Shown here: piece by piece, positions 22,331 through 43,935 of the stretch
Layout: every line of letters begins with the position of its first letter
How positions within the stretch are numbered: position 1 is the stretch's first letter
Assembly (NCBI GenBank): GCA_963811605.1
Contig: CAWESA010000006.1
Coordinates: 837 to 64,836 of the forward strand
Direction: 5' to 3'
From: an uncultured delta proteobacterium
Lineage (GTDB): Bacteria; Desulfobacterota; Binatia; DP-6
DNA length: 64,000 nucleotides
Notes under the pieces: model-generated
The model's input: the letters and a program-made list of their open reading frames with translations, nothing else
Database searches by the model: none
What the model was told of the DNA's origin: nothing
Translations under genes and position numbers: made by a program

Positions 22331-22351
22331 GCGGACCCTCCTGGGAATACG

Positions 22352-22366
22352 TGCACATGCCGTGCA
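22352..22366. promoter_or_regulatory. TGCA-N7-TGCA site (TGCACATGCCGTGCA) upstream of the YCF48-RND-ABC genes
   Basis: 21 nt upstream of the YCF48 ATG and just downstream of a TACAAT -10-like hexamer (22376-22381, minus strand). Confidence 0.55.
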
Positions 22367-22591
22367 GACACACAGATTGTACCGCACGGTCAGCTTCCGG
22401 CCTTTACCCGTGCCCGGGTCGAAGTGTCAACGGCGTACCGCGTCAGATGGCACCGATGCGCGGAGGCCTCGTCGGGTTTCAACCGGCACTGTGGATGCTC
22501 CGCGCGGAGCACGCGGCCGAGTGCAGCGAGCGGGGAGCGAGACCCGCCGGGCTTCGCCCGCCGGCGCGAGGGGCGGAGCTCCTCGCTGGAT

Positions 22592-24502
22592 TCAGAACAC
22601 GTACTCGACCTGGAAGCGGATGTTGTCCCTGTCGCGCACCGTGCCGAACTGCTGCGCCGCGACCGACGTCACCGAGGTGTAGTCCACGGTGAACCGGAAG
22701 GGATCACGCACGAGCGTGACGCCGGGCTGGACCACCACCCCGCCCGCCCAGTCGTAGAACATGCCCAGGAAGGGCGCGATGCGACCGCCGGAGTAGGACG
22801 TGGTGATGAGGAGCGTCTGCAGATAGCGGTTGCGCTTTTGCGGGTAGAGGCGGGGCTGGAGCCGGCACGCCCGCGTGCCCGGCCGCGGCTTGGCGGTCGA
22901 GTTCGGGTCCTTGGGGCCGCAGCCGCCGCCGAGGGCGCCGAGGGTGTTGTTCGGGTCGGTCGGGTTGCCGATGATGGCGATCCGCGGGTCGACGGGGAGA
23001 TTCCGGAACGGCACCGGCAGGACGAGATCGTCCGGCGCGTTGAAGACGTGCTTGTAGAAGAACTGCGTGCTGATGAAGAACGTCTGCGTGGGGTTCAGCT
23101 GCCGGATGAAGCGGTTGATGTCGAGTCCGACCGACATGTTGAACGAGTCGCGCTGCAGCACGGTGCCCCACAGCGGCTCCTTGCGTCCGGTCGCCAGGAA
23201 GCGCGGGTAGACGAACGGGTTCAGTCCGCCCTCGGTGTTGTTGAACGCGCGCAGGCGCTTCGTCCCGGGGGTGCCGATGCCGGTCTCGAGCGGGGCGAAG
23301 CTGTCGAAGCTGCTGCCCTTGCCCTGGCGGTTCATCGGCTCGCCGCGGAAGTACGCGAACTCCGAGCGCACGATGGTGTAGAGCGAGGTGATCGGGAAGG
23401 TCATCGAGGTGCCGGTGATCTGCACCCGTGGGTAGCGCTGGATGGCGAGGATCGGGTTGTCGAAGCTGGCCGTGTTGCTTCCGTTCTTCATGCCCGGGAG
23501 CCTGAACTGGATGCCGGGGACGTCGAGGTAGGTGTAGTAGTGCGCGACGTTGAAGGTGATGTCCTTGGCGGTGAAGACCAGTCGCGCGCCGCCGCGGATC
23601 TGCGTGGCGTCGGGCGTATCGACGATGGTCCGCAGCGATTGGTTCGGATACCCGAGACCACCCGGCTCCCAGGGTGACCCCTGAGGAATGCCCGGGTTGG
23701 TCGCGACCCTGTTCCCCTGCGCGGCGAAGCCCTCGAGGTAGGCGTCCTGGAACGGCCCCCACGAACCGAGCTGGTAGCTGGTGCGGGCCATGGCGATCGG
23801 GACGCGGCGTTCGTCGAGCGCGATGAAGAAGCCGCCGAAGCTGTCGTCGAGCGGATTGATGTTGTCGAGCAGCCGGAAGACGTCGGTCTCGCCCCAGGCG
23901 AGCACCTGGCGCCCGACGCGGAGGAAGAACGGACCCCTCTCGAAGTCGAGGTAGGCGAGGAAGAGGCGATTGCGCACGCGCGCGTTCCGCCGCAGCCGGT
24001 CGACGCGCTCATCGATGAAGCGGTTGTCGAGCTTGGGGCTCGTGTTGGCGATCCCGGGGATGTTGACCTTCGGAAAGTCGCCGCGGAACCGCTCCAGGGC
24101 GGCGGTCTGGTGCGTGTACTCGTCGGGACCGATGTCGTACAGCGTCTCGCCCTCGAAGCGGTACTCGAGCGTGTACTTGAGGTTCGTCGGGTCGAGGAGG
24201 CGAAACGGCGCCAGCAGTCCCCGGCTGTTCTTCACCAGTCGGGTGAGGTCGTGGTCGTACGACAGCTGGAGGAAGTAGCGGTTCTGCCGCAGATGCCCGG
24301 CGCCCGAGACGGGATAGTTGAGCGGATTGTCCGAGCCGCCGATGCGCTCCGTGCCCACGCGAACGGCGCTGTACGCCCGCATGCCGAGACGGATCTCGCC
24401 GCGCTGGTCCAGGCTGAGCGCATACGCCGCGCGGGTGCCGAGCAGCGCAACCAGCGCAACGAAGGTCCCGGTCAGAAGCCGTCCCAGACACCGCGGCGCC
24501 AT
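22592..24502 (-). CDS. DUF1302-family outer-membrane beta-barrel protein
   Basis: Signal peptide, LRVGRQVLAWGETDVFRLLDNINPLD motif, C-terminal DRDNIRFQVEYVF. Confidence 0.88.
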   Translation of the reverse strand: MAPRCLGRLLTGTFVALVALLGTRAAYALSLDQRGEIRLGMRAYSAVRVGTERIGGSDNPLNYPVSGAGHLRQNRYFLQLSYDHDLTRLVKNSRGLLAPFRLLDPTNLKYTLEYRFEGETLYDIGPDEYTHQTAALERFRGDFPKVNIPGIANTSPKLDNRFIDERVDRLRRNARVRNRLFLAYLDFERGPFFLRVGRQVLAWGETDVFRLLDNINPLDDSFGGFFIALDERRVPIAMARTSYQLGSWGPFQDAYLEGFAAQGNRVATNPGIPQGSPWEPGGLGYPNQSLRTIVDTPDATQIRGGARLVFTAKDITFNVAHYYTYLDVPGIQFRLPGMKNGSNTASFDNPILAIQRYPRVQITGTSMTFPITSLYTIVRSEFAYFRGEPMNRQGKGSSFDSFAPLETGIGTPGTKRLRAFNNTEGGLNPFVYPRFLATGRKEPLWGTVLQRDSFNMSVGLDINRFIRQLNPTQTFFISTQFFYKHVFNAPDDLVLPVPFRNLPVDPRIAIIGNPTDPNNTLGALGGGCGPKDPNSTAKPRPGTRACRLQPRLYPQKRNRYLQTLLITTSYSGGRIAPFLGMFYDWAGGVVVQPGVTLVRDPFRFTVDYTSVTSVAAQQFGTVRDRDNIRFQVEYVF

Positions 24503-24566
24503 GACTGTCGTCATTCCCCACCTCCGACGCAGGCAGATGAAACACGCTGTCCCGAAAAGCCGCGGC

Positions 24567-24596
24567 TTTATAAGAAGGCATGCGCGAAGGTGTCAA
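24567..24596 (-). promoter_or_regulatory. Sigma70-like promoter for DUF1302 (TTGACA-N18-TATAAA)
   Basis: Minus-strand TTGACA at 24596-24591 and TATAAA at 24572-24567, in an AT-rich patch within GC-rich DNA. Confidence 0.55.
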
Positions 24597-24628
24597 GGAC
24601 GACGCGCGCCGGCCGCGCGCGCTCGCGC

Positions 24629-25667
24629 TCACCAGGCGCGTGTTGCGCCGATCGCGGGGGTCAGGATGCGCGCCGGATCGATTCCCTGCCGCACCGCGGC
24701 GGCGTGGAAGCGGCGCGGCGGCTCGTCGAGGGGCTCGTCGGTGAGATCGAACGTCCCGTAGTGGATGCCGAGCAGGCGGTCGGCGCGCGCGTCCAGGCCG
24801 GCCTGGAGCGCTTCCTCGGGATTCAGGTGCACCGGCTGCATCATGGCCGGCGGGTCGTAGGCCCCGATCGGCACGGCGGCGAGGTCGAACGGGCCCAGCC
24901 GGGTCCCGATCTCCGCGAACAGGCGGGCGTAGCCGGTGTCGCCGGCGAACCAGAAGCGGCGGGTCGGGCCCGTGATGACCCAGCCGGACCACAGGGTCCG
25001 GTTCATGTCGCCGAGGCTGCGCTGGCTCCAGTGACGCGCCGGGACGCAGGTGATGGTCACCGCGCCGAGGGAGCGCGACTCCCACCAGTCGAGCTCCTCC
25101 ACCACCCCGCCGATGTCCGCGTCGCGCAGGATCTCGCCGACGCGGAGCGGCACGAAGAAGCGCGTGCCGCGGGCAGCCAGCGCCCGCAGCGAGGGCAGGT
25201 CGAGATGGTCGTAGTGCGAGTGGGAGACGACCACGGCGTCGATGGGCGGCAGCGCCGACAACCGGCATGGGCGGCGGCACGAAGCGACGGGGTCCGAGCC
25301 ACGAGACGGGGCTCGCCGTGTCGGACCAGATGGGGTCGGTCAGGATGGTCACGTGGTCCATCTGGACGAGCACGCTGGCATGGCCCAGCCAGGTCACGCT
25401 CGGCGCGCTGTGGCGGGCATTGTCGCGCAGCCAGGCGCCGTCGTTCGGCACCAGGGCGGGCGCTCCCGGGCGGGAGAACATGGCCCCGACGGCCCGGCGC
25501 AGGAAGAAGGGCAGCGTGATCGCCAGGCCCGGGCGCTCGTAGGGCTCGAGGTTGGTGAAGCCGTCGGCGGTGTGGTGGGGCGGGGTGTCCATCGCGAGGA
25601 CCGACCGGGCCTGGGCGGCGAGACCGAGCGCCAGCAGGCACGCGCACGCATGATACGATCGACCCAC
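24629..25667 (-). pseudogene. MBL-fold metallo-hydrolase (NAPE-PLD/RomA-like), split by a +1 frameshift near 25262
   Basis: TWLGHAS..TDPIWS in one frame, SHSHYDHLD, FAGDTGY, PIGAY and IHYGTF in another; removing one G from ATGCCGGTTGTCG restores MPLSALPP. May be a sequencing error. Confidence 0.8.
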
Positions 25668-25728
25668 CAGCCGAAGCTATCCGCTCGCGGCGTGCCAGGC
25701 GAGGCTCGAGGGGCGTCCTGCTTGAACC

Positions 25729-25743
25729 TGCATTCGGACTGCA
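25729..25743. promoter_or_regulatory. TGCA-N7-TGCA site (TGCATTCGGACTGCA), candidate TetR auto-operator
   Basis: Imperfect palindrome 17 nt upstream of the TetR ATG, immediately after a TTGAAC -35-like hexamer. Confidence 0.6.
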
Positions 25744-25760
25744 ATAACTACCGCACGTCC

Positions 25761-26369
25761 ATGGCGCTGGCGTCTCCCGCTCCCCTGATCGTCGACGGCC
25801 GTCTCGCACGCGGCGCCCGCGCCCGCGCCGCCATCGTCGAGGCGCTCCTCGCCCTCATCGAGCGCGGCGACCTGCGTCCGAGCGCGGCGCGAGTGGCGGA
25901 GCGCGCGGGCGTGTCGCTCCGATCGGTGTTCCAGCACTTCAGCGACGTCGAGTCGCTGTTCGCCACCGCCGCGGCGCGGCAAGCGGAGCGCCTGGCGCCG
26001 CTCGTGGGCGCCGCGCCGGACGAGGGACCGCTGCCACGCCGGCTCGACGCGTTCGTCCGCCAGCGCGCCCGCCTCCTCGAGACCGTGGCGCCGGTGCGGC
26101 GGGCGGCCATCCTGGTGGAGCCGTTCTCCGCCGAGCTGCAGGGGCGCCTCGCCGCCTTTCGCGCCCTCAAGGCCGAGGAGGTCCGCCGTGTCTTCGCCGT
26201 CGAGCTGGCGCGGCGACCGGGGGCCGCCCGGCGCCGATTGCTGGCCGCGCTGGTCGCGATCGCGAGCTGGAACACCTGGCAGGCGCTGCGCCAGCACCAG
26301 GGCCTGTCGCAGCGCGAAGCGCGGCGTGTGCTCCACGCGATGCTCGAAGCCCAGCTGCGGAGGAGCTGA
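25761..26369 (+). CDS. TetR/AcrR-family transcriptional regulator
   Basis: RAAIVEALLALI...PSAARVAERAGVSLRSVFQHFSD HTH; stop overlaps the next ATG. Confidence 0.9.
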   Translation: MALASPAPLIVDGRLARGARARAAIVEALLALIERGDLRPSAARVAERAGVSLRSVFQHFSDVESLFATAAARQAERLAPLVGAAPDEGPLPRRLDAFVRQRARLLETVAPVRRAAILVEPFSAELQGRLAAFRALKAEEVRRVFAVELARRPGAARRRLLAALVAIASWNTWQALRQHQGLSQREARRVLHAMLEAQLRRS

Positions 26370-27259
26370 TGGACGTCCTGCGCACCCCGGACGAGCGCTT
26401 TCGCGATCTGCCCGGCTATCCGTTCTCGCCGCGCTGGCTGGAGACCGACGGCCTGCGCATCCACTACGTCGACGAGGGACCTCGTGACGGTGCGCCCGTC
26501 CTCCTCCTGCACGGCGAGCCGTCGTGGTCCTTTCTCTATCGCACCATGATCCCGATCATCGTGGCCGCCGGCCACCGGGCCGTCGCGCCCGACCTGGTCG
26601 GCTTCGGCCGCTCGGACAAGCCGGCGCAGCGCGAGGAGTACACCTACCAGCGCCACGTCGACTGGATGCGCGCCGTCCTCGGCGAGCTCGCGCTGCGCGA
26701 CGTCACGCTGGTCTGTCAGGACTGGGGCGGCCTGATCGGCCTCCGTCTCGTGGCGGAGCATGCCGACCGCTTCGCGCGCGTCGTCGCCGCCAATACCATG
26801 CTGCCCACCGGCGACGTCGCTCCCGGGGCCGGATTTCTCGCCTGGCGAACGTTCTCGCAGGGCGTTCCCGAGTTCCCGGTCGGGCGGATCGTGCAGGGCG
26901 GCTGCGTCACGTCGCTGCCGCCGGAGGTGGTCGCCGCCTACGACGCCCCCTTTCCCGATGAGCGCTTCAAGGCGGGCGCCCGGCAGTTTCCGCTCCTCGT
27001 GCCCATCAGCCCGGACGATCCGGCGGCCGCGCCGAATCGCGCGGCCTGGGCGGCGCTCGAGCGCTTCGAGAAGCCGTTCCTGACGGCGTTCAGCGACTCC
27101 GATCCGATCACCGGTGGCGGCGACGCCGTGCTCCAGGCGCGCATCCCCGGCGCGCGCGGCCAGGCGCACGCGACCATCACCGGCGGCGGGCACTTCCTGC
27201 AGGAGGATCGCGGCGAGGTCCTGGCCCGCGTGATCGTCGATTTCATCGCGCGCACGTGA
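26369..27259 (+). CDS. Haloalkane dehalogenase (DhlA/DhmA-type alpha/beta hydrolase)
   Basis: VLRTPDERF, LLLHGEPSWSFLYR, DLVGFGRSDKP, CQDWGG nucleophile elbow, GGHFLQED. Confidence 0.92.
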   Translation: MDVLRTPDERFRDLPGYPFSPRWLETDGLRIHYVDEGPRDGAPVLLLHGEPSWSFLYRTMIPIIVAAGHRAVAPDLVGFGRSDKPAQREEYTYQRHVDWMRAVLGELALRDVTLVCQDWGGLIGLRLVAEHADRFARVVAANTMLPTGDVAPGAGFLAWRTFSQGVPEFPVGRIVQGGCVTSLPPEVVAAYDAPFPDERFKAGARQFPLLVPISPDDPAAAPNRAAWAALERFEKPFLTAFSDSDPITGGGDAVLQARIPGARGQAHATITGGGHFLQEDRGEVLARVIVDFIART

Positions 27260-27270
27260 AGGGAGGCGAC

Positions 27271-28269
27271 ATGACCGGCACGTATCGCATCTTCGGCGTC
27301 GAGCTCTCCCCCTACTCGGTGAAGGTACGCTCGTACTTCCGGTACAAGGGGATCCCGCACGAGTGGGTGGTGCGTACGGTGCACACGCAGGCGGAGTTCG
27401 ACCGCTACGCCAAGCTGCCGCTGATCCCGCTGGTGGTCGCGCCCGACGGCACGGCGATGCAGGACTCGACGCCCATCATCGAGCGCCTGGAGCAGGAGTT
27501 TCCCGAGCCGTCGATCCATCCGGGCGATGCGACGGCGGCGTTCATGTCCGCGCTCCTCGAGGAGTACGGCGACGAGTGGGGCAACAAGCCCATGTTCCAC
27601 TATCGCTGGTTCTACGAGGCGGACCAGGAGTCGGGCGCCGATCGCATCGCACGGACCATGAATCCGGACGCGACCGACGAGCTGCTCGACGGCATCCGTG
27701 GCGCCGTGAAGGGCCGCATGATCCCCCGCCTCAAGTTCGTCGGCTCGTCGGCGGCGACGAAGGATCAGATCGAGGGGTCGTTCCTGCGCCTGCTCGCGCT
27801 CCTCGAGCGCCATCTCGAGAGCCGGCCGTTCCTGTTCGGCGGCCGCCCCGCGTTCGGAGACTTCGGCGTCTTCGCGCAGCTGTACGAGTGTCTCTCCGAT
27901 CCCACACCGGGCGCGATCATCCGGACGCGCGCGCCGCGCGTGCAGGCGTGGATCGAGCGCATGCTGGCGCCGCAGGCCTCGGGCGGCTGGGAGCCGTGGG
28001 AGGTGCTCGAGCCGACCCTGCTGCCGGTGCTGCGCGACGAGGTGGCGGGCGTCTTCCTGCCGTGGAGCGCCGCCAATGCCCGCGCCCTGGCGGCCGGCGA
28101 GAAGGAGTTCTCGGTCGAGCTGGGCGGCAAGCCGTTCACGCAGGAGACGCAGCGCTACCACGCCAAGTCGCTGGCGGCGCTGCGCGCCCGCCATGCGGCG
28201 ATCGGCGACCGCGCCGCGGTCGACGCGGCGCTCGAGCGCGCCGGCTGCCGGCGCTGGCTCGCGGCGTAG
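27271..28269 (+). CDS. Atypical long glutathione S-transferase-family protein
   Basis: SPYSVKVRSYFRYKGIP, LIPLVV, QDSTPII, HYRW, GRPAFGDFG motifs; GGGAGG RBS before the ATG at 27271. Confidence 0.85.
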   Translation: MTGTYRIFGVELSPYSVKVRSYFRYKGIPHEWVVRTVHTQAEFDRYAKLPLIPLVVAPDGTAMQDSTPIIERLEQEFPEPSIHPGDATAAFMSALLEEYGDEWGNKPMFHYRWFYEADQESGADRIARTMNPDATDELLDGIRGAVKGRMIPRLKFVGSSAATKDQIEGSFLRLLALLERHLESRPFLFGGRPAFGDFGVFAQLYECLSDPTPGAIIRTRAPRVQAWIERMLAPQASGGWEPWEVLEPTLLPVLRDEVAGVFLPWSAANARALAAGEKEFSVELGGKPFTQETQRYHAKSLAALRARHAAIGDRAAVDAALERAGCRRWLAA

Positions 28270-28276
28270 CGCGCCG

Positions 28277-28888
28277 TCAGTGTGCGGGCGCGTCCGGGCC
28301 CCACACCTCCCGCAAGCGCGCGTCGCGGCCGCAGTTCCAGCGATAGACGCGGTACCGGACCGGATTCTTCTTGTAGTAGTCCTGGTGATAGTCCTCGGCC
28401 GGGTAGAAGGCGCCCGCGGCGACGATCTGGGTGACGATCGGCCCGGGCAGCTTCCTCGCCGCTTCCAGCGCCTGCCTCGACGCCTCGGCGAGCCGACGCT
28501 GCGTCTCGTCGTGATAGAAGATCTCGGTGCGGTACTGGGTGCCGTGGTCGCAGAACTGCGCGTTGGCCGTCGTCGGGTCGACGTTGTGCCAGAAGACGTC
28601 GAGGAGCTTCTCGTAGCTGACCCTCGCGGGATCGTACGCGATCTCGATCGCCTCCGCGTGCCCGGTGCCGCCCGCCGAGACCTCCTCGTAGGTCGGATTG
28701 ACCGTGGTGCCTCCGGTGTAGCCCGACGTGACCGACACCACGCCGTCGAGGGCCTCGAACGGCGGCTCCATGCACCAGAAGCAGCCCCCGGCGAAGGTGG
28801 CCCTGGCGAGAGCGGGCGGATCGGCGGCCACCGCGGGCGCGGCGAGCGCGGCAATGACAGCGAGGGCGACGAGACGGAGCGTGTGCAT
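28277..28888 (-). CDS. msrA: Exported peptide-methionine (S)-S-oxide reductase
   Basis: FAGGCFWC, GYTGG, YEEVS, GHAEA, AEDYHQDYY motifs; N-terminal signal peptide. Confidence 0.95.
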   Translation of the reverse strand: MHTLRLVALAVIAALAAPAVAADPPALARATFAGGCFWCMEPPFEALDGVVSVTSGYTGGTTVNPTYEEVSAGGTGHAEAIEIAYDPARVSYEKLLDVFWHNVDPTTANAQFCDHGTQYRTEIFYHDETQRRLAEASRQALEAARKLPGPIVTQIVAAGAFYPAEDYHQDYYKKNPVRYRVYRWNCGRDARLREVWGPDAPAH

Positions 28889-29067
28889 CTGGGGTTTGAT
28901 GCACTGGCGCGTGGAGTCGATACAAGTCGGCCGTTCGCGCACTCCGAGCTGGCTGCGAATCGGGTGCGTGGGCGCGGCCGCGGCGCTGGCTGCCGGATGG
29001 CGGGCGACTTCCCGCCGCGCGCCGGCGGATGCTTGACCTCGCGCGGACACCTGGGGCACGGAGGCGC

Positions 29068-30132
29068 ATGTCCTACCGAGTGATCCAGTGGAGCACCGGC
29101 AACGTCGGCAAGCTCGCGCTGCGCGGCATCATCAACCATCCCGACCTCGAGCTCGTCGGCCTGTGGGTGCACGGCGCCGACAAGGTGGGCCGCGACGCCG
29201 GCGATCTGTGCGGGCTCGGACGGACGGTCGGCGTGACCGCGACCAGCGACGCGGCCGCACTCCTCGCCCTCGATGCCGACTGCGTGTCGTACACGGCGAC
29301 CGCCGACATCCGGCTGCCGGAGGCGGTCGACGACCTCTGCCGCATCCTCGAGGCGGGAAAGAACGTCGTCTCCACATCGGTCGTGCCGCTGGTCTTTCCG
29401 CCGGGCGCGCCCGCGGAGATCGTCGCTCGGCTCGAGGCGGCGTGCCGGAAGGGTGGCACGTCGTGCTTCACCTCCGGCATCGACCCGGGCTTCGCAAACG
29501 ACGCACTGCCGATCATGCTGCTGAGCGCCTGCGAGCGCGTGGACTCGGTGCGCGTGATGGAGATCCTCGACTACGCCACCTACGACCAGCCCACGGTCCT
29601 CTTCGACACCATGGGCTTCGCGAAGCCGCTCGACCACACGCCGTTGCTGCTCATTCCCGGCATCCTCACGCTGGCCTGGGGTCCGGTCGTGCACGCGATC
29701 GCGGCCGCCCTCGGCACCGAGGTGGACGAGATCCGCGAGACGTACGACCGCCGCGCCACCGACACGGCCTTCACCGTGCCGTCTGGTCCCGTGCCCGCGG
29801 GCACCGCGGCCGCGCTGCGCTTCGAGGTGCAGGGCATCGTGCGCGGCCGGCCCGCGATCATTCTCGAGCACGTGACCCGCCTCCGTCCCGAGCTCGTGCC
29901 GGAGTGGCCGCAGCCCGCCGGCGGCGGCTGCTATCGCGTGATCATCGAGGGCTCGCCGTCGATGATCTGCGATCTCCAGCTGCTCGGCGAGGACGGCGAC
30001 CACAACACCGGCGGCCTCGTCGCCACCGCGATGCGCATCCTGAACGCGGTCCCGGCCGTGTGCGCGGCGAAGCCCGGCCTGCTGGCGGCGCAGGACCTGC
30101 CCTTCTACAGCGCCCGCGGCCTGCTCGCCTGA
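29068..30132 (+). CDS. NAD(P)-dependent amine dehydrogenase / dihydrodipicolinate-reductase-like oxidoreductase
   Basis: YRVIQWSTGNVG Rossmann start, KVGRDAG, AGKNVVS, SGIDPGF, NAVPAVC. Confidence 0.8.
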   Translation: MSYRVIQWSTGNVGKLALRGIINHPDLELVGLWVHGADKVGRDAGDLCGLGRTVGVTATSDAAALLALDADCVSYTATADIRLPEAVDDLCRILEAGKNVVSTSVVPLVFPPGAPAEIVARLEAACRKGGTSCFTSGIDPGFANDALPIMLLSACERVDSVRVMEILDYATYDQPTVLFDTMGFAKPLDHTPLLLIPGILTLAWGPVVHAIAAALGTEVDEIRETYDRRATDTAFTVPSGPVPAGTAAALRFEVQGIVRGRPAIILEHVTRLRPELVPEWPQPAGGGCYRVIIEGSPSMICDLQLLGEDGDHNTGGLVATAMRILNAVPAVCAAKPGLLAAQDLPFYSARGLLA

Positions 30133-30203
30133 GGGCACCTCCGGGCCCGGTATCGCCCGTGTCCCTCCCCCGGGCTCCGGCGGCGGCTGGCGAGATGCTT
30201 CGC

Positions 30204-33578: not shown

Positions 33579-33615
33579 GGTGACCTCCGGGGCGGCCGGT
33601 GCTCGCCATCCGAGG

Positions 33616-33673
33616 CGCCGCCCTCACACGAGAGGCGTGCGCGGGGGCGTCACGACGTGAACGCCGCCCTCAC
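33616..33673. repeat. 12-bp direct repeat CGCCGCCCTCAC x2
   Basis: Exact copies at 33616-33627 and 33662-33673, upstream of the 1124-aa gene. Confidence 0.6.
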
Positions 33674-33822
33674 GAGGTGGCTCGGTGGGTGATTCGTGTC
33701 ATAGGGATACAGATAGACAGCGCGCCACCTGGCGCATGGAGAGCCCGTCGGGGCCGGGGGGTGGCCATGGGCCCTCCCCCGGGGAGTCGCGGCCCCCCGG
33801 TGCCGCTCCACGCACCGGCGGC

Positions 33823-34728
33823 TCAGACGGACCAGGTCGTCGGGCGGTCGGGGTCCGGGAGGTAGACGCAATGCACGCCGGTCCGGATGCGCAGCCGGAG
33901 CTCGTCCCCGAGGGCCGGCAACGCGGCGTGCACGCGCTTGAGGGCCGTCCGGATGGCCTGGGTGACCGTGGATCGTGCCCGCTCGGCCGCGTCGGCCGCG
34001 CGACGATCGCGGCCGCCGAGCCCGACAGCCGCCGCCAGCTGCTCGGTCAGCGCCTCCCGCTCGGCATGGACCCGCGCCGCCCGGCCGTCGTCTCCGAGCC
34101 GTTCGGCCTCCGCGAGCTCGCTCTGCAGGTCGCTGAGCCGTTGCCGGTACGCCGCCTTGGCGGGAGCGTCGAGAACCTCGACGCCATGGGCCGCCGGCGG
34201 CTGCATCCAGCAGCCGGCCGTGGCCAGGTCGAGGACGTGGAACTCCCGTCCGGGATCACGCAGGAGCCGCGCGATGTAGTGCAGCCCTCGCACGTCGCGG
34301 ATCCGCCGCACCTCGCCCCGCCAGGCGATGGTCCAGTACTCCCCCTCCGGCTTGAGGACGCCCGCCGCGCCCGTGGCCGCTCCGCGCTCCTCCGCGCGGC
34401 AGACGTCGGGACCCACGTCGGGCGGCGCGGGGGTGCGCCGCGCGAGGGCGTCGACGAGGAAGGCGAGCTCGGCCAGCGTCTTGGTGAGCAGATGCAGGAC
34501 GTCCCGCTCGCCGGTCGGCTCGCCGCCACCGGAGGACCTGCGGCTGAGCGCGCCGAGATCGCGGAGCAGCTGGAGCGTCGGGGCCGACCAGGGCTCGGCG
34601 GCGGCGTCGGGCCGCGCCCCCGCCGAGCGTCCCGGCGGCTCGCGACCGTCCTTGCCGCCAGTCGCGTCGGCCGGCGCGCCAGCCACGGAGGCGCGGTTGC
34701 GGTGCGCGTCCGGATCGTTCTCGATCAT
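33823..34728 (-). CDS. Putative transcriptional-regulator domain normally found at the C-terminus of large AAA/TPR proteins, here stand-alone
   Basis: EGEYWTIAW.G..GLHYIARLL..PGREFHVLDL, LDAPAKAAYRQRL, ERARSTVT.AIR.A, IRTG..CVY.PDP; low-complexity N-terminus. Confidence 0.7.
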   Translation of the reverse strand: MIENDPDAHRNRASVAGAPADATGGKDGREPPGRSAGARPDAAAEPWSAPTLQLLRDLGALSRRSSGGGEPTGERDVLHLLTKTLAELAFLVDALARRTPAPPDVGPDVCRAEERGAATGAAGVLKPEGEYWTIAWRGEVRRIRDVRGLHYIARLLRDPGREFHVLDLATAGCWMQPPAAHGVEVLDAPAKAAYRQRLSDLQSELAEAERLGDDGRAARVHAEREALTEQLAAAVGLGGRDRRAADAAERARSTVTQAIRTALKRVHAALPALGDELRLRIRTGVHCVYLPDPDRPTTWSV

Positions 34729-34977
34729 GATGGTGCGCGCGTTCCGTGCCCGCGTAGTGGCCGCGGCGGCCACTCGACGACCGCGGCGGACGGCCAGCCG
34801 GCAGAGGCGAAGGCTCGCGATCCCGAGCCCGGCCGCCGACCTGTACATGCGTTCACGGCGATTCGCTCCCCCGGGGCGCCCCTCGGAGGGCGCACCCCAC
34901 TACCTGTCTATCCTCCTGGAATGGCTGTGGGAAGTCCAGGGCAATTTGGGCCGCCCCGGTCCGCGGGCGCCGCGTGC

Positions 34978-37050
34978 CTAGGCGGCGCGGGCGAGCCCGG
35001 CCTGCCGCAGCAGCGCGGCGGTGCTGGGCTCGCGGCCGCGGAAGGCCCTGAACACGTCCATGGGATCCCGGCTGCCGCCGAGGGCCAGCACCGTGTCGCG
35101 GAAGCGCCGGCCGGTGGCGGAGACGGCGGCGGGGTCGTCCAGGCCCGCCTCCTCGAACGCGGAGAACGCGTCGGCAGACAGCACCTCCGCCCACTTGTAG
35201 CTGTAGTACCCCGCCGCGTAGCCGCCGGCGAAGATGTGCGTGAAGCCGCACAGGAAGCGGTCCTCGGGCAGGGGCGGCAGGACGGTGGTGCGGGCCGCGA
35301 CGCGCCGCTGGATGTCGAACACCGATTCGTCACCGCCGGGAGCCCAGCGATGATGGAGCTCGAGGTCCAGGGTGGCGAGGTAGATCTGACGCAGCGTGTC
35401 CGAGCCGGCGCGAAAGGTGCGGGCGGCCACCAGCTTGCGGTAGAGCTCCTCGGGCAGGGGCTCTCCGCCGTCGACGTGGCGGGAGAGGCCGAGCAGCGTC
35501 TCGCGGTGATAGCACCAGTTCTCCATGAACTGGCTGGGCAGCTCGACGGCGTCCCACTCGACGTTGCGGATGCCGGCGGCGAGCGGACGCTCGACGGTCG
35601 TCAGCATGTGCTGAAGGCCGTGGCCGAACTCGTGGAAGAGCGTGTGCACCTCGTCGAACGTCATGCACGACGGCCGATCGCCGACGGGCGGCACCTGGTT
35701 GCAGACCAGGTAGGCGATCGGCAGGCGACCCGGGGCGCGGCCGACACACTCGTCCATCCAGGCGCCGCCGCGCTTCTCGGCCGGGCGGCTGTACGGGTCG
35801 AGATAGAAGGCGGCGACGGGAGTGCCGGCGCCGTCCTCGATGCGGAAGAAACGGACGTCGGGATGCCACACGGGCGCTTCGCCGTCGGCGGGTCGCACGC
35901 GCACCCCGAAGAGTCTCCCGGCGAGCGCGAAGAGCCCGTCGAGCACGCGTGGCAACGGGAAGTAGGGGCGCAGCGCCTCGTCGCTGTACGCGAAGCGCTT
36001 CTCGCGCAGGCGCTCGGCCCAGAACGCGACGTCCCAGTTGCGGAGCTCGGCCGCCTCGGGCGCGCCGGCCTCGCGCGCGAGCGTGCGCAGCTCGTCGAGG
36101 TCGCGCGTGGCGGCGTCGAACGACGCCTCGCGCAGCTCCTCGAGCAGGCGCGCGACCGCGGGGACGTCGGGCGCCATCTTCGTCGCGAGGCTGAGCTCCG
36201 CATAGCTGCCGAAGCCGAGGAGCGCCGCCTGCTCGCGGCGCAGGCCGAGAATGCGATCGAGCAGCGGCGTGTTGTCGTGCTCGCCCGTGCTCGCGCGCGT
36301 GACGAAGGCGCGGTAGAGCTGCTCCCGCAGGTCGCGCCGCCGGCCGTGCTGCATGAAGGGCACGTAGGCCGGCGCGTCCAGCGTGATGCGCCAGGGCCCC
36401 GCGTCGGCCGTCGCCCCCTCGTCCCCTGCCTGCCGGGCCGCCTGCGCCGCCAGCTCGAGCAGGCTCCGTGGCAGCCCGTCGATCTCCTCGCGCGCGCGGA
36501 GCGTGAGTGAGAAGGCCTTGGTCGCATCGAGCACGTTGTTGCTGAACCGCGTCGACAGCTCGGCGAGCTCGGTCTGGATGGTGTTGAAGCGCGCCTGCGC
36601 GTGGCCCTCGAGCCCGACGCCGCCCAGCTCCGCGTCGCGCACCAGCGCCTCGACGATGCGGCGCTGCGCGCCGTCGAGCGTGGCCCACGCGTCCGCGGTC
36701 CGGAGCTCCTTCAGGGCCCGGTAGATGGGCTTGCTCTGTCCGAGACGGATGAAGAAGGCGACCACCTCCGGCTGCATGGTCGCGTGCGCCTCGCGCAGGG
36801 CGTCGCTGTTGCGCACCGCCATGAGGTGGCCGACCGTGCCCCAGGCGAGGCCCAGGCGGTCCGTGATCCGCGTGATCGGCTCGACGACCGCATCCCACGA
36901 TGGAGCGGCCCCGGCTTCGAGCCGGTCGAGGTCGAGGCGCACGTGGTGCAGCAGGGCGCGCAGCGCCGGGACCACGTGCTCGGGCCGGATGTCCTCGAAG
37001 TGCGGCGGCGCCTCGGGGTCGAGGAGGGGATTGGGCTCGATGTCGGTCAC
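34978..37050 (-). CDS. prlC: Oligopeptidase A (M3A metallopeptidase)
   Basis: NPLL start, KRGGAWM, HEFGHGLQH zinc motif, VELPSQFMEN, YAAGYYSYKWAEVL, GGS..P...F..FRGREP. Confidence 0.93.
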   Translation of the reverse strand: MTDIEPNPLLDPEAPPHFEDIRPEHVVPALRALLHHVRLDLDRLEAGAAPSWDAVVEPITRITDRLGLAWGTVGHLMAVRNSDALREAHATMQPEVVAFFIRLGQSKPIYRALKELRTADAWATLDGAQRRIVEALVRDAELGGVGLEGHAQARFNTIQTELAELSTRFSNNVLDATKAFSLTLRAREEIDGLPRSLLELAAQAARQAGDEGATADAGPWRITLDAPAYVPFMQHGRRRDLREQLYRAFVTRASTGEHDNTPLLDRILGLRREQAALLGFGSYAELSLATKMAPDVPAVARLLEELREASFDAATRDLDELRTLAREAGAPEAAELRNWDVAFWAERLREKRFAYSDEALRPYFPLPRVLDGLFALAGRLFGVRVRPADGEAPVWHPDVRFFRIEDGAGTPVAAFYLDPYSRPAEKRGGAWMDECVGRAPGRLPIAYLVCNQVPPVGDRPSCMTFDEVHTLFHEFGHGLQHMLTTVERPLAAGIRNVEWDAVELPSQFMENWCYHRETLLGLSRHVDGGEPLPEELYRKLVAARTFRAGSDTLRQIYLATLDLELHHRWAPGGDESVFDIQRRVAARTTVLPPLPEDRFLCGFTHIFAGGYAAGYYSYKWAEVLSADAFSAFEEAGLDDPAAVSATGRRFRDTVLALGGSRDPMDVFRAFRGREPSTAALLRQAGLARAA

Positions 37051-37261
37051 GGGGCGGATGTACCATCGGCGCCGACCCCGGGCGACCCTTCGCGCGTGCC
37101 CGGCACGGGCGAAGCCCACCCCGCCGGCGCCGCGGCGGCACGTTGCGCGACCACCGCTGCCGCTGTAGCGCGACCGGGCGCTGGTCGACGCGCACGTGCA
37201 CCTCCTGCCGGATGCCGCACGTCTGCTCGCGCCCTGAGCGCGTTTCGGTGTAGGCGAGCGG

Positions 37262-38794
37262 ATGCCGTCCGTCCCGTGGTGGCGCTCCGGCGTCGTGTAC
37301 CAGATCTATCCGCGCTCGTTCGCGGACACGGACGGGGACGGCGTGGGTGATCTCGAGGGCGTCCGCCAGCACCTCGACCACCTGGTCTGGCTCGGCGTCG
37401 ACGCGGTCTGGCTGTCGCCCATCTTTCGCTCGCCGATGGCCGATTTCGGCTACGACGTGAGCGACTACTGCGACGTCGACCCGCTCTTCGGCTCCCTGGC
37501 CGATCTGGACCGGCTGGTGGCCGAGGCCCACGCGCGCGGGGTGCGCGTGCTGCTCGACTGGGTGCCGAACCACACGTCGGATCGGCACCCGTGGTTCGTC
37601 GAGTCGCGGCGGTCGCGCACCAGCTCCCACCGGGACTGGTACGTGTGGCGCGATCCGGCCGGCGGGGGCGGTCCCCCGAACAACTGGATGGCGGCGTTCC
37701 CGCCCGAGACGCGTGCCTGGACGCTCGATCCGGCGACCGGCCAGTACTACCTGCACTGCTTCCTGCCCTCGCAGCCCGATCTCGACTGGTCGAACCCCGC
37801 CGTCGTCGCGGCCATGCACGACGTCCTGCGCTTCTGGCTCGACCGGGGCATCGACGGCTTCCGCGTCGACGTCGTGCACTGCCTCGGCAAGGACCCGGCG
37901 CTGCCTGATGATCCACCCGATCTGGCCGCGCTGCCGCACGCGGCCATCAACGATCACCCCTCGACGCACGTCGCGCTCCGTGGGCTGCGCCGTCTCGTCG
38001 ACACGTATCCCGGAGATCGCATGCTCGTCGGGGAGGTGTTCCAGCTCTTCCAGCCCGACGTCACGCGCTACTACGGGCGCGGCGACGAGCTCCACCTGGC
38101 GTTCGATCTACCGGCGACCCTGTACACGCCGTGGGAGGCCCGCGCCTGGCGCGAGCGCACGGCGTCCGTCCTGGCGGCGCACGGCGCCGCGGGGGCGTGG
38201 CCGACCGTGGTCCTGTCGAATCACGATACCCCCCGGCATCGCACGCGCCTCGGGTCGGAGGCGCGCGCGCGTGCGGCGGCGGTCCTCCTGCTCACGTTGC
38301 CAGGCACGCCGTTCCTCTACGCCGGCGAGGAGCTCGGCCTGGAGGACGCCTTCGTGGCGCGCGAGCGCCGCGTCGATCCCGGAGGTCGGGACGGCTGCCG
38401 CGCGCCCCTGCCGTGGGACGGATCGCCCCGGCATGGATGGGCCGGCGAGCCATGGCTTCCCTGGCCGCCCGACGCCGGCGCGCGCTCCCTGGCGACCTTG
38501 CGGGACGATCCGTCTTCCATCCTGCACCTCTACCGCCGCTTGCTGGTGGCGAGGCGCTCGTCGCCCGCGCTGCGCGGTGGCGGCTGGAGCGCGCGCGACG
38601 CGCCGCCGGACGTGCTGGCGTACGAGCGCGTTGCCGACACCGACAGGCGGCTCGTGCTGGTGAACTTCGGCAGCGCGCCGGCCAGGATCGCAGTCGGGGG
38701 ACGGGTGGCGGTGGCGAGCGACGGCGCCGGCGAAGGCGACGTCTTTGCAGGCGTGCTCGGGCCGGATGCGGCCGTGATCCTGCAGCCCGAGTAG
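37262..38794 (+). CDS. GH13 alpha-glucosidase / alpha-amylase-family protein
   Basis: YQIYPRSFAD, GYDVSDY, DWVPNHTS, GFRVDV, GEV, SNHD, RDGCR. Confidence 0.92.
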   Translation: MPSVPWWRSGVVYQIYPRSFADTDGDGVGDLEGVRQHLDHLVWLGVDAVWLSPIFRSPMADFGYDVSDYCDVDPLFGSLADLDRLVAEAHARGVRVLLDWVPNHTSDRHPWFVESRRSRTSSHRDWYVWRDPAGGGGPPNNWMAAFPPETRAWTLDPATGQYYLHCFLPSQPDLDWSNPAVVAAMHDVLRFWLDRGIDGFRVDVVHCLGKDPALPDDPPDLAALPHAAINDHPSTHVALRGLRRLVDTYPGDRMLVGEVFQLFQPDVTRYYGRGDELHLAFDLPATLYTPWEARAWRERTASVLAAHGAAGAWPTVVLSNHDTPRHRTRLGSEARARAAAVLLLTLPGTPFLYAGEELGLEDAFVARERRVDPGGRDGCRAPLPWDGSPRHGWAGEPWLPWPPDAGARSLATLRDDPSSILHLYRRLLVARRSSPALRGGGWSARDAPPDVLAYERVADTDRRLVLVNFGSAPARIAVGGRVAVASDGAGEGDVFAGVLGPDAAVILQPE

Positions 38795-38839
38795 CAGCGC
38801 GACGCTGCGGCCGGAGCCCCGGGCGGCGTGTGCGCCGAC

Positions 38840-39751
38840 TCAGCGCCTGACGCCCTGCGCCGCTAGCCAGTCCTTGATGGTCTTCGTCACCAGCGCCGAA
38901 GCGTCCTGCTGCACGAAGTGCCCGGCGCCCGGGACGGTCACGAGCGTCCACGGGGCAGCGAGCCACTGCCACGTCCCGTTCAGGCCGGCAGCGAGCAGGA
39001 AGGGATCGGCGAGGCCGTGAATCTGCAGCACCGGCGCCTGCACGATCGGGAACTCGACGTCGGCGTACGGGGCTCTCGGATAGTTTCGCCGGTAGTAGTT
39101 CAGCATGGCCGTGAAGTCCGAGCGACGGAACGCGTCGACGTAGCGCGCCCGCGCGGCGGGATCGACGACCCAGGCCGCGAGGCCTTCGGCGGTCAGGCTG
39201 CGCTCCGCGCCCGCGACCTGGAACACGCGTGCGTACGAGCTGCTCGCCTGCTGCTGGGGATTGGTGCGCAGCTCGCGCAGGAGGCATCGGGGATGCGGCA
39301 GGTTCAGGATGACGAGCCGCTCGGTCATGGACGGGTAGAACATGGCGAACGTCCACGCCACCGCGCCGCCCCAGTCGTGCCCGACGACGACGGCCTTGTC
39401 CGCGCCGACGTCGCGGATCACCGCCGCCACGTCGCTCGCCAGCGTCGCGAGGTCGTACGCCTCGACGCCCGCCGGCTTGTCGCTCAGGTTGTAGCCGCGC
39501 TGGTCGATGGCGACGACCCGGTAGCGGCGCGACAGCGCCGCCATCTGATCGCGCCACGTGTACCAGAAGTCCGGAAAGCCGTGGATCATGACGATCAGCG
39601 GCCCCCGGCGGCCGAGCGCGGCGTAGTGGATGGTGACGCCGCCGTTGTCGGCATAGCCGTCGCGGACCCGGTCGTAGACGTCACGCGGCGCGCCGTGGAC
39701 GGATGCGGCGAGGCCCGTGAGCAGGAGCACGAGCGAGCAGAGACGGGTCAT
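38840..39751 (-). CDS. Exported alpha/beta hydrolase (epoxide-hydrolase-like)
   Basis: [36 protein letters not shown]; signal-peptide-like N-terminus. Confidence 0.88.
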
Positions 39752-39853
39752 GGCGGCGCGCTACCACGGCGGATGCCCGTCCGTCTGCCGGCGCGAGCCG
39801 GGGGGCGTGTGCGCCGGGCCGATCGGCCGTCCGGGCCGCCGAACGGCAGCGGG

Positions 39854-40975
39854 TCAGCCGATCGCGCCGGCCTCCGCCAGCCGGTCGACCTCGTCGCCCG
39901 ACAGGCCGTACTCCGCGAGCACGGCGCGGGTGTGCTCGCCGACCCTGGGCAGGGGACGCGACCCGTCGCCGGGGGTCCGCAGCAGCCGCGGGGCCGGGGC
40001 CGGCTCCCGCTTGCCCTGCGGGTCGGCGATGAGGAGTCCGCGCGCACGATTGTGGGGATGCTCGTGCGCCTCGCCGAGCGACAGGATCGGCGCCACGCAG
40101 GCGTCGGTGCCGTCGAAGACGGCGCACCACTCGGCACGCGTGCGGCTCGCGAACAGCTCGGCGAAGCGCGCCGCCGTGCCCGGCCACGACGCCTGATCCA
40201 TCTGCGCCGGCATGCTGGCGGCGTCGAGGCCCAGCCCCTCGAGGAGCGCGGCGTAGAACTGCGGCTCGATGGCCCCGACCGACATGTACGCGCCGTCCTT
40301 GGTCCGGTAGGTGTCGTAGAAGGGCGCGCCCGTGTCGAGCAGGTTGGTGCCGCGCTCGTCGCGCCACATGCCGGAGTTGCGGAACTTGTAGACGAAGGTC
40401 GCGATGTAGGCGGCGCCGTCGACCATGGCCGCGTCGACCACCTGGCCCCGCCCGGAGTGCGCGCGCTCGAGCAGCGCGAGACACACGCCGAGCGCGCACA
40501 GCATCCCGCCGCCCGCGAAATCGCCGAGCAGGTTGACCGGCGGCACCGGCTTCTCGCCCTTGCGGCCGAGGAGCGAGAGGGCGCCGGAGATGGCGATGTA
40601 GTTGATGTCGTGCCCGGCCATCGCGGCGTACGGCCCGTCCTGTCCGAACCCGGTGAGACGGGCGTAGACGAGACGCGGATTGCGGGCGCACGCGACGTCC
40701 GGACCGAGACCGAGGCGTTCCATGACGCCCGGCCGGTACGGCTCCAGCAGCACGTCGGCGCGCTCGACGAGCCGGAGCACCGTCTCGACACCCTCGGGAC
40801 TCTTCAGGTTGACGGCGACCGATCGCTTGCCCCGCGCCAGCTGGTCGACCGACCCGGCGCCGACCCGATCGACGCGGACGACGTCGGCGCCGAAGTCGGC
40901 CAGGATCATCCCGCAGAACGGCGCGGGGGCCAGCCCGGCCATCTCGACGACGCGAGTTCCCTCGAGAGCGCTCAT
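39854..40975 (-). CDS. CaiB/BaiF family III CoA-transferase, alpha-methylacyl-CoA racemase-like
   Basis: PAPFCGMILADFGADV, YRPGVMERLGLG, AGHDINY, NLLGDFAGG, NLLDTGAPFY, VGAIEPQFY. Confidence 0.92.
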   Translation of the reverse strand: MSALEGTRVVEMAGLAPAPFCGMILADFGADVVRVDRVGAGSVDQLARGKRSVAVNLKSPEGVETVLRLVERADVLLEPYRPGVMERLGLGPDVACARNPRLVYARLTGFGQDGPYAAMAGHDINYIAISGALSLLGRKGEKPVPPVNLLGDFAGGGMLCALGVCLALLERAHSGRGQVVDAAMVDGAAYIATFVYKFRNSGMWRDERGTNLLDTGAPFYDTYRTKDGAYMSVGAIEPQFYAALLEGLGLDAASMPAQMDQASWPGTAARFAELFASRTRAEWCAVFDGTDACVAPILSLGEAHEHPHNRARGLLIADPQGKREPAPAPRLLRTPGDGSRPLPRVGEHTRAVLAEYGLSGDEVDRLAEAGAIG

Positions 40976-41049
40976 GCGCCGCCATCCCTAACGGAGACCG
41001 CGCGACCAACTCAAGCGGAGCGGGCCGGCCGGCTGTCCGACGCGGTTAT

Positions 41050-41064
41050 TGCACCACGAGTGCA
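41050..41064. promoter_or_regulatory. TGCA-N7-TGCA site (TGCACCACGAGTGCA) between the divergent CoA-transferase and GST genes
   Basis: TGCAC-N5-GTGCA palindrome 19 nt upstream of the GST ATG. Confidence 0.55.
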
Positions 41065-41083
41065 CAATCAGGTATCGCCGCGC

Positions 41084-42178
41084 ATGGCCGACTCCCCGCG
41101 TCCGTTCCGGTTCTACGCCGCCGAGATGTCCTACTTCTCGGGCAAGGTCCGTCCGGCCCTGCGCGCCAAGCGGGTGCCGTTCGACGAGATCCTGCCCACG
41201 ACACGGGCATACCGCGAGGTCATCGTCCCCCGGACGGGCCTCGCCATGATCCCCACGATCGTGACGCCCGAGGACGAGACCTGGCAGGACACGAGCGACA
41301 TCCTCGACGCCCTGGAGGCACGCTTCCCGGAGCCCGCCCTCTACCCGGCGACGCCCGTGCAGCGCCTGTCGTCCTTCCTGATCGAGCTGTACGCGGACGA
41401 GTTCCTGATCCTGCCCGGGCTGCACTACCGCTGGAGCACCGCGGAGGGCGAGACGCGGGCCCGCCAGGAGTTCGCGATCATGACCGCGGATCCGCCGCGC
41501 GCCGACAAGTTCGCCAGCGCGGTCCGCATGTTCACGAGGGTGGTGGGCGTGCAGGAGGACACGATCCCCGCCATCGAGGCGCATACCCACGACCTGCTCG
41601 CGGCGCTCGAGGCGCACTTCGCCGAGCATGCGTTCCTGCTGGGTGAACGGCCATCTCTCGCCGACTGCGGGCTCATGGGCCCGTTCTACGGGCACTTCTA
41701 CCTCGACCTCGTTCCCGGCGCCCTGCTGCGCGCGACGGCGCCGCGCACGTGTCACTGGATCGAGCGCATGAACCATCCCGATCCGGATTCCTTCGGCGCC
41801 TGGCTGCCGGACGATACGCTGGCGCCGACGCTGCGCCCGATCCTCGACCTGGTGGGTCGCGACGCCGCACCGCTGATCCTCGACACGGTGCGCGCGTTCG
41901 AGGACTGGGCCGACGGCCAGCAGCCCTCGGACGACGAGCTGCCGCGCGGGGTCGGCATGCACCGCGCGCGCCTGCGGGGCGTCGGATTCGAGCGCTTCAC
42001 CGTGTCGTACACGCTGTGGATGCTGCAGCGCCTCGAGGCAGCGCACGCCGCGCTCGACGACACCGGCCGTGCGGCCGTGGCGGCCGCGCTCGCGGGGACC
42101 GGTGGCGAGTCGCTGCTCGCCTACGCGCCGCGGCATCGGGTGGTGCGGCGGCCGTACCGGCTCTTCCTCGAGCGCTAG
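41084..42178 (+). CDS. Atypical long glutathione S-transferase-family protein (paralogue of 27271-28269)
   Basis: SYFSGKVRPALRAK, MIPTIV, QDTSDI, HYRW, GERPSLADCG, WIERM. Confidence 0.85.
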   Translation: MADSPRPFRFYAAEMSYFSGKVRPALRAKRVPFDEILPTTRAYREVIVPRTGLAMIPTIVTPEDETWQDTSDILDALEARFPEPALYPATPVQRLSSFLIELYADEFLILPGLHYRWSTAEGETRARQEFAIMTADPPRADKFASAVRMFTRVVGVQEDTIPAIEAHTHDLLAALEAHFAEHAFLLGERPSLADCGLMGPFYGHFYLDLVPGALLRATAPRTCHWIERMNHPDPDSFGAWLPDDTLAPTLRPILDLVGRDAAPLILDTVRAFEDWADGQQPSDDELPRGVGMHRARLRGVGFERFTVSYTLWMLQRLEAAHAALDDTGRAAVAAALAGTGGESLLAYAPRHRVVRRPYRLFLER

Positions 42179-42196
42179 GAGCGGCCGCGAACTTCT

Positions 42197-42211
42197 TGCA
42201 GTAGAAGTGCA
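42197..42211. promoter_or_regulatory. TGCA-N7-TGCA site (TGCAGTAGAAGTGCA) upstream of the sulfatase operon
   Basis: Overlaps a TTGCAG-N18-TATGGT promoter-like pair; 21 nt upstream of the ATG at 42233. Confidence 0.55.
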
Positions 42212-43801: not shown

Positions 43802-43935
43802 GCAGCGGCTGGGGCTACGCGCTCCTCTGCGTGACCATCCCCGCGCTGTGGGGACTCGTCATGGTGGCGGTGTTCGATCGCTGGGAGCGTCGCCGGGGCC
43901 GGCAACGGCGCCACCCCACCGACTACTCCATCTGA
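43798..43935 (+). CDS. 45-aa single-TM microprotein
   Basis: GTG overlaps the sulfatase TGA (GTGA); reads MSSGWGYALLCVTIPALWGLVMVAVFDRWERRRGRQRRHPTDYSI; fills the gap before TauE. Confidence 0.6.
   Translation: MSSGWGYALLCVTIPALWGLVMVAVFDRWERRRGRQRRHPTDYSI

Follow-up and report, generated by a model that had tools for sequence, protein, structure and literature searches.

A TGCA-N7-TGCA palindrome at four promoters of an uncultured Binatia bacterium, a probable TetR operator linking a haloalkane dehalogenase with a sulfatase

Here, we describe a spaced palindrome, TGCA-N7-TGCA, in front of four gene units on a stretch of 64,000 nucleotides (the window) from an uncultured soil bacterium, a delta proteobacterium (GTDB lineage Bacteria; Desulfobacterota; Binatia; DP-6; GenBank assembly GCA_963811605.1, contig CAWESA010000006.1, positions 837 to 64,836 of the forward strand). 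The palindrome is probably the operator of the TetR-family regulator encoded at 25761-26369 of the window, which would block four promoters, those of its own operon with a haloalkane dehalogenase (HLD), of a second glutathione S-transferase (GST)-like protein, of a sulfatase and of a transporter operon headed by a YCF48-like protein. Binding by this TetR is predicted from the comparisons given below, as is repression rather than activation. A control of dispersed sites by the TetR at 25761 had been put forward in a first-pass annotation of the window, and footprinting, synteny and gene linkage now support it. As a regulon, it is of the standard TetR scheme and new in this uncultured lineage.

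The whole window was scanned with the pattern TGCANNNNNNNTGCA (TGCA-N7-TGCA, a 15-bp palindrome), revealing four exact matches, at 22352, 25729, 41050 and 42197, precisely where the first-pass annotation had placed them and with the sequences that it quoted. The motif is enriched, as dinucleotide-preserving shuffles of the window gave a mean of 0.55 matches and a maximum of 3, none of 100 reaching four. It is also restricted to intergenic DNA, as annotated before: all four sites are situated between genes, in the 8.1% of the first 48.5 kb that is intergenic according to our gene map (based on the GC content of third codon positions, GC3, together with Pfam and NCBIfam scans), and the coding regions of the window contain no exact match. 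TGCA itself is 1.8 times denser in intergenic than in other DNA of the first 48.5 kb, the intergenic part being AT-richer; with the per-site chance raised to about 0.22 as a rough correction (a site needs two TGCA), four intergenic sites out of four still correspond to p of about 0.002. In a scan with a symmetrised weight matrix derived from 24 collected sites, the four sites scored 13-25 bits and the next best position, within a gene, 10.9 bits, so that no additional site was found in the window by this matrix, and one-mismatch sites were at background level. Past about 48.5-49.7 kb, GC3 and coding density fall sharply, few good open reading frames (ORFs) were called between about 48500 and 64000, and all four sites are located before this drop.

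For comparison, 91 related loci (designated L and a number) were used, namely three genome contigs, 80 metagenome loci with homologues of GST-like protein 2 (GST2) and eight loci around TetR homologues; the TetR orthologues in genome contigs are from metagenome-assembled genomes (MAGs) of Candidatus Binatia. When aligned, the sites show the consensus TGCA(C/T)(T/G)-N3-(A)(G/C)TGCA, with a fuller core written as TGCAyt-N3-aSTGCA and TGCAyt half-sites whose centres are 11 bp apart. The -35 and -10 boxes named in the following were assigned solely by conservation among orthologues. O-tetR (25729..25743, TGCATTCGGACTGCA) lies 17 nt before the TetR ATG at 25761 and occupies the 17-nt spacer between a -35-like TTGAAC (25722-25727) and a -10-like TAACTA (25745-25750). 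The TetR promoters in general display TTGAAC, TTGTGC or TTGAGC as a -35-like box, a 17-18-nt spacer holding the entire palindrome and then TAAnnT, which in the window, L001, L002 and L088 is 9-10 nt from the ATG. O-ycf48 (22352..22366, minus-strand reading TGCACGGCATGTGCA) is found 21 nt before the ATG at 22330 on the minus strand, with a conserved TACAAT box (22381-22376) 9 nt upstream of it and the strong Shine-Dalgarno sequence AGGAGGG downstream. O-gst2 (41050..41064, TGCACCACGAGTGCA) precedes the GST2 ATG at 41084 by 19 nt; its first TGCA is within a -35-like TTGCAC (41049-41054), followed by an 18-nt spacer and a -10-like TATCGC (41073-41078), with the ATG 5 nt further on. O-sulf (42197..42211, TGCAGTAGAAGTGCA), 21 nt before the sulfatase ATG at 42233, is built in the same way, with TTGCAG (42196-42201), an 18-nt spacer, TATGGT (42220-42225) and the ATG 7 nt further on; comparison of orthologues placed the conserved start of the sulfatase at 42233, not at 42221. 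The distances of 21, 17, 19 and 21 nt to the start codons had been given correctly in the first-pass annotation, but their similarity is partly a coincidence, because three different promoter geometries are behind them. Retention of a site at differing places within promoters is more in keeping with a repressor operator than with an activator site or an element of the core promoter.

The orthologous GST2 and sulfatase promoters share a spacer of constantly 18 nt between a TTGCAy -35-like box and a TAnnnY box (TATCGC, TAGCGC, TATGGT or TATCGT), and in 13 of them this hexamer is positioned 5-9 nt before the ATG with no Shine-Dalgarno sequence. Both promoters look leaderless in their layout, and transcription would begin at the start codons. 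Public RNA runs provided no usable 5' ends for mapping these starts: only three runs contained 5-7% of the words, in short contigs of diverged relatives, with 16-21 of the 23-32 contigs per run less than 90% alike. The genes at 661-1449, 10582-11544, 12107-12916, 37262 and 38840-39751 are likewise preceded by a TAnnnY hexamer, 5-9 nt from the ATG, and have no Shine-Dalgarno sequence, and the other leaderless-looking promoters of the window do not carry the motif. Many mRNAs of this Binatia lineage may thus be leaderless.

The palindrome is associated with the promoter of the TetR gene itself. An exact TGCA-N7-TGCA is located 16-20 nt before the TetR start in ten of 11 orthologue loci (57-83% protein identity), that is, as a putative operator at the regulator's own promoter in the window and in nine of the ten further loci (L001, L002, L084, L085, L086, L087, L088, L089 and L090), L086 and L087 being counted separately though they have the same protein and identical upstream DNA. 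The N7 interior of these sites varies among the orthologues, and the flanks are kept, with TTGnnC 1-2 bases upstream and ATAAGT or TAAnnT directly downstream. The association extends across two phyla: L003, from an Actinomycetota MAG, encodes a TetR homologue of 45% identity with related palindromes nearby (9614-9632, TGCATTTAGAGTGCT; 9797-9811, TGCACTACTAGTGCT; 12720-12734, TGCACTCTGCGTGCA). Here, TGCACTACTAGTGCT overlaps a TATAAT box directly upstream of the TetR homologue gene, a second one-mismatch copy is present 180 bp farther upstream, two of the palindromes overlapping TATAA-type -10 boxes, and the next intergenic gap contains the exact TGCACTCTGCGTGCA, in front of a gene for an MFS transporter.

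In two of the more distant relatives, genes that are dispersed in the window are joined in one operon with a single motif at its head, TetR-HLD-DUF1330-sulfatase-metallo-beta-lactamase (MBL) in L089 (10001-14469) and TetR-HLD-sulfatase in L090 (10001-13031). The contig P0099, compared by gene order only, has TetR, a 265-aa ORF, HLD, DUF1330 and MBL in a row. The single operons of TetR, HLD and sulfatase in distant relatives are independent gene-neighbourhood evidence that these three belong together. This linkage of dehalogenase and sulfatase genes, as seen in L089, L090 and P0099, did not turn up in our searches for papers.

The motif is conserved in relatives at all four promoters, and it is present, not absent, upstream of the orthologues of all four targets; the phylogenetic footprinting that had been proposed in the first-pass annotation thus came out in its favor. 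Before YCF48, the site is exact in L084 (5178) and L085 (5320) and has one mismatch in L086. The GST2 site is exact in L004, L005, L024, L027 and L066, and no site was found at GST2 homologues of at most 67% identity from other lineages. The sulfatase site is exact in L004-L008 and L086, where it extends to a 23-bp palindrome that reads TTCTTGCA-N7-TGCAAGAA except in L007. In L007 (1716-1746), both flanks of the sulfatase operator are altered together, giving TTATTGCA-N7-TGCAATAA, and such a symmetric change fits a dimer recognising the longer, 23-bp site. In L024, L027 and L066, GST2 and sulfatase are joined via a Shine-Dalgarno sequence with no internal site, so that the single site before GST2 would serve both genes.

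The background of the motif in related DNA is low. Within 554,680 bases from 90 loci, 27 exact matches were found, 22 of them at the four promoter types, one being the intergenic site of L003 and four lying inside genes. At the shuffle rate of the window, about 4.8 chance matches are expected in this amount of DNA, so the four coding matches are about what chance would give. The motif is therefore not equally common inside genes, which would have spoken against the regulon suggested before.

The predicted repressor (25761..26369, plus strand) is a protein of 202 aa. A phmmer search of the Protein Data Bank (PDB) returned eight matches, all of them TetR-family proteins aligned over the helix-turn-helix (HTH) region (best E=4e-5). 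Its AlphaFold2 model (pLDDT 86.7, pTM 0.76) displays ten helices in an all-helical two-domain TetR fold, and all 50 PDB matches listed by Foldseek are TetR-family regulators, with TM values of 0.42-0.69 (0.6-0.69 for the better superpositions) and identities of 13-27%; the top ones include NalD (first, 27%), FasR, PhlH and NalC. The HTH segment AERAGVSLRSVFQHF, comprising the recognition region, is almost invariant across 36 TetR homologues. Moreover, this TetR is the sole regulator gene of a conserved syntenic block of about 30 kb in the window, L084 and L086, with the order ABC, MMPL, YCF48, DUF1302, MBL, TetR, dehalogenase, GST, MsrA and, further on, CoA-transferase/GST2-sulfatase.

Several observations weigh against an operator of this TetR at the four promoters. 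L091 has a TetR of 64% identity with an identical HTH sequence, and its promoter carries no site within one mismatch. At GST2, the site of L007 is without its right half and those of L006, L008 and L086 deviate by one mismatch, although all of these loci keep the promoter boxes. The match of Pfam TetR_N (PF00440) to the TetR (E=1.5e-4, 21.9 bits) is below the gathering score of 24. A strict sigma-70 scan, run together with a terminator scan, called no promoter at any of the four sites. Finally, the first TGCA at GST2 and sulfatase doubles as part of the -35-like TTGCAy, and part of its conservation there could stem from the promoter itself.

One alternative is a real operator bound by another regulator encoded elsewhere, a TetR paralogue or a member of another family, that also controls the TetR gene; in line with it, L091 keeps the TetR and its HTH sequence and has no site. 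We regard this as unlikely, since the site stays at the TetR's own promoter in nearly all orthologue loci, a related palindrome accompanies the 45% identical homologue in another phylum, and the block contains no other conserved regulator gene. A global regulator does not fit either, because no other promoter family with the site appeared in the 555 kb of related DNA.

It is very unlikely that the palindrome merely reflects core-promoter architecture, with TTGCA as the -35 box and the second TGCA as a spacer or extended element or as the -35 box of an opposed promoter. In line with such an architecture are the TTGCAy containing the first TGCA and the constant 18-nt spacer at GST2 and sulfatase, the reverse complement of TGCAAGAA, which is TTCTTGCA, and the location of O-tetR and O-gst2 between divergent genes. 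However, the spacer that encloses both TGCA of the TetR promoters belongs to another -35 box (TTGnnC), those at YCF48 are both downstream of the -10 box, and the sulfatase site, the most symmetric of all, is not next to a divergent gene. At GST2 of L006-L008, the second TGCA has decayed and the -35 box is kept, showing that the two are separable, and the remaining leaderless-looking promoters of the window lack the motif, as mentioned.

TGCA words about one helical turn apart are also known from sigma-54 (-24/-12) promoters and NtrC-type enhancer sites. The sigma-54 consensus is TGGCAC-N5-TTGCA, with GG at -25/-24 and GC at -13/-12, and NtrC sites are TGCACC-N5-GGTGCA (TGCA-N9-TGCA). The sigma-54 consensus aligns to our motif with one mismatch, but all 24 collected sites have TG, not the near-invariant GG doublet, at the -24 element, and the predicted start would leave leaders of 6-10 nt and cut the Shine-Dalgarno sequence of YCF48. 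As for NtrC, the spacing is N7 at every site, not N9, a difference already pointed out in the first-pass annotation, and the sites are at or over the promoter, not at least 100 bp upstream. Because the GG is missing and neither spacing nor position agrees, both readings were rejected, and we give them hardly any credence. The higher TGCA density of AT-richer intergenic DNA is all that speaks for a chance or compositional effect, or for a methylation or restriction motif, which can be practically dismissed given the shuffles, the orthologous positions conserved while the interior varies, and coding DNA holding no more of the motif than the chance rate.

Two further candidates were considered and rejected. 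An RNA hairpin (TGCAC-N5-GTGCA, a 5-bp stem) is possible in the YCF48 leader, but with the other three sites upstream of the inferred transcription starts, it was rejected as an explanation for the motif in general. A MerR-type activator acting by spacer distortion was rejected as well, as the spacer is 18 nt, not 19-20 nt; at GST2 and sulfatase, the centre of the palindrome is near -28, covering the -35 box, which also counts against it.

For the TetR encoded at 25761-26369 as the repressor, the following mechanism can be proposed. A TetR dimer on the palindrome would block RNA polymerase at the four promoters, filling the -35/-10 spacer at TetR-HLD-GST, covering the -35 box and half of the 18-nt spacer at GST2 and at sulfatase-(small ORF)-TauE, and sitting just downstream of the -10 box at YCF48-MMPL/RND-ABC. 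Release of the TetR by a small molecule would induce all four units; this ligand would probably be a hydrophobic alkyl compound, halogenated or sulfated, or a product of such a compound.

A TetR repressor on a palindromic operator overlapping promoters is a textbook mechanism. Like TetR at tetO and one-component repressors of the wider TetR family (for example QacR, KstR, NalD, NalC, MexL and FasR), the regulator of the window has about 200 aa, a predicted N-terminal HTH and an all-helical ligand domain; its gene adjoins genes that it would control, its putative 15-bp palindromic operator overlaps promoters including its own, and the targets include an RND-type transporter and detoxifying enzymes. 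It differs from them in that none of its close relatives is characterised (among PDB sequences, the best match is the one at E=4e-5 given above) and in a predicted regulon extending over four promoters across 20 kb, not one divergent pair. Neither the half-site TGCA(C/T)T nor TGCA-N7-TGCA was found in a literature search, which also revealed nothing relevant on a TetR operator at a haloalkane dehalogenase gene and no paper describing this operator or regulon.

DhaR-dhaA of haloalkane-degrading Rhodococcus, reportedly described by Poelarends and colleagues in 2000, is said to have a TetR-type repressor beside a haloalkane dehalogenase. Compared by gene layout, both systems have a TetR-family regulator gene directly upstream of the dehalogenase gene, whereas the predicted regulon of the window adds a sulfatase, two GSTs and a transporter, and its host belongs to an uncultured phylum. 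AefR is a TetR-family protein too, and its name is the KEGG/JGI label carried by many homologues of our TetR by automatic name transfer; its structure 3cdl is only marginally similar to our TetR, within the HTH region (E=5e-3). Genes for BNR, RND and DUF1302 proteins are also part of a Pseudomonas gene set (DUF1302/DUF1329/BNR/RND) found to be co-fit on Tween 20 and fatty esters by RB-TnSeq (10.1101/2020.07.04.188060). The window resembles this module in its YCF48-like BNR protein, its RND transporter and a neighbouring DUF1302 gene. Unlike the Pseudomonas module, which is linked to a LuxR-type regulator, only the BNR-RND-ABC part carries the TetR-type operator in the window; the DUF1302 gene, upstream of YCF48, has none.

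The gene labels that the first-pass annotation had given to the four units were all borne out by the Pfam and NCBIfam scans. In the TetR operon, the start codon of the HLD gene (26369..27259, plus strand) overlaps the TetR stop. The HLD reached 482.8 bits against NCBIfam NF002043 (cut-off 265), and the predicted HLD motifs of the family are intact, with the QDWGG nucleophile and the GGHFLQED histidine. The third gene (27256..28269, plus strand) encodes GST-like protein 1 (GST1; 337 aa, Pfam GST_N_3 and GST_C_2), and the order TetR-HLD-GST1 is the same in L084, L086 and L088. GST2 (41084..42178, plus strand; 364 aa, Pfam GST_N_3 and GST_C), for which 80 homologous loci were found in metagenomes, is divergent from a gene for a family III CoA-transferase. 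The type I formylglycine sulfatase (42233..43801, plus strand) matches Pfam Sulfatase at 1.3e-31 and displays the CMPAR signature (CMPARSTMVTG); its start, MGRKILF, is conserved, it has no signal peptide and is predicted to be cytoplasmic, and it had no equivalog-level NCBIfam match. Behind it, a 45-codon ORF read from the sequence (43798..43935, plus strand), apparently for a small hydrophobic protein, begins with a GTG overlapping the sulfatase stop (GTGA), and 12 nt separate its end from the start of a predicted TauE/SafE-family anion exporter (43948..44850, plus strand; Pfam TauE). The overlap and the 12-nt gap tie sulfatase and TauE into one tight unit, and from this packing, TauE is probably co-transcribed with the sulfatase.

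On the minus strand, the first gene behind O-ycf48 encodes a YCF48-like, propeller-type BNR-repeat protein with a signal peptide (21320..22330; Pfam PSII_BNR 1.7e-39). It is followed in the same operon and orientation by genes for an MMPL/HAE3-type RND transporter (18763-21318), an ABC ATPase (17822-18766), an ABC-2 permease (17082-17825), an ABC_transp_aux protein (15742-17085) and a DUF4340 protein (15212-15745). From RND to DUF4340 (15212..21318), neighbouring genes either share 4 nt or are separated by 1 nt, and L084 and L086 have the same order.

Judged from their gene content, the four units would share one theme, the removal of halide and sulfate leaving groups from hydrophobic alkyl compounds and the transport of these compounds. 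It is a tentative and rather doubtful idea that they form a conserved and hitherto undescribed pathway, with HLD, the cytoplasmic sulfatase and the GST-like enzymes acting on the same natural alkyl compounds bearing halide and/or sulfate. The substrates could then be, for example, lipids carrying halogen or sulfate, or electrophiles of the soil that act as alkylating agents; transport of the substrate would fall to the YCF48-MMPL-ABC machine and export of the released anion to TauE. If true, such a shared pathway would provide a native context for widespread, physiologically unexplained HLDs, and the TetR would be a natural sensor of such compounds.

To our knowledge, the Binatia (Binatota) have no cultured member. 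Our literature search found nothing on gene regulation in Binatia. A phylum-wide study of Binatota genomes does not mention promoters and mentions TetR once, and it reports haloalkane dehalogenase genes in all Binatota genomes (PMC8262859). Our analysis offers a concrete, predicted regulator-operator pair for Binatia and a first view of what appears to be the promoter layout of this lineage, in which an 18-nt spacer separates a TTGCAy -35 box from a TAnnnY -10 box and leaderless starts are putatively frequent. It further links the HLD with a sulfatase, two GST-like proteins and a lipid-type transporter, through predicted shared regulation and through operon membership in distant relatives. As to the native role of HLDs in bacteria other than pollutant degraders, the natural substrate would be indicated by the ligand of the TetR.

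Some other features of the region deserve mention. About 120 nt before YCF48 (22331-22460, minus strand) are almost invariant in the window, L084, L085 and L086, whose TetRs are 74-83% identical to that of the window. The conserved block reads GTCTGACGC..ACGCCGTTGACACTT..CGGGTAAAGGCCGGAAGCTGACCGTGCGGTACAATC and contains an ACCG-TG-CGGT palindrome; an Rfam scan of the window, this leader included, matched no family. As the conservation exceeds the operator, it hints at a further regulator site, an additional promoter (TTGACA-N18-TAAAGG) or an RNA element. The gene with a metallo-beta-lactamase fold that is divergent from TetR (24629-25592, minus strand) has a frameshift near 25257-25270, its L084 orthologue (319 aa) aligning in frame -3 and then in frame -1, and it is either a pseudogene or the result of a MAG assembly error. 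Between MBL and TetR, L084 and L086 have a PMT_2-like gene that is absent from the window.

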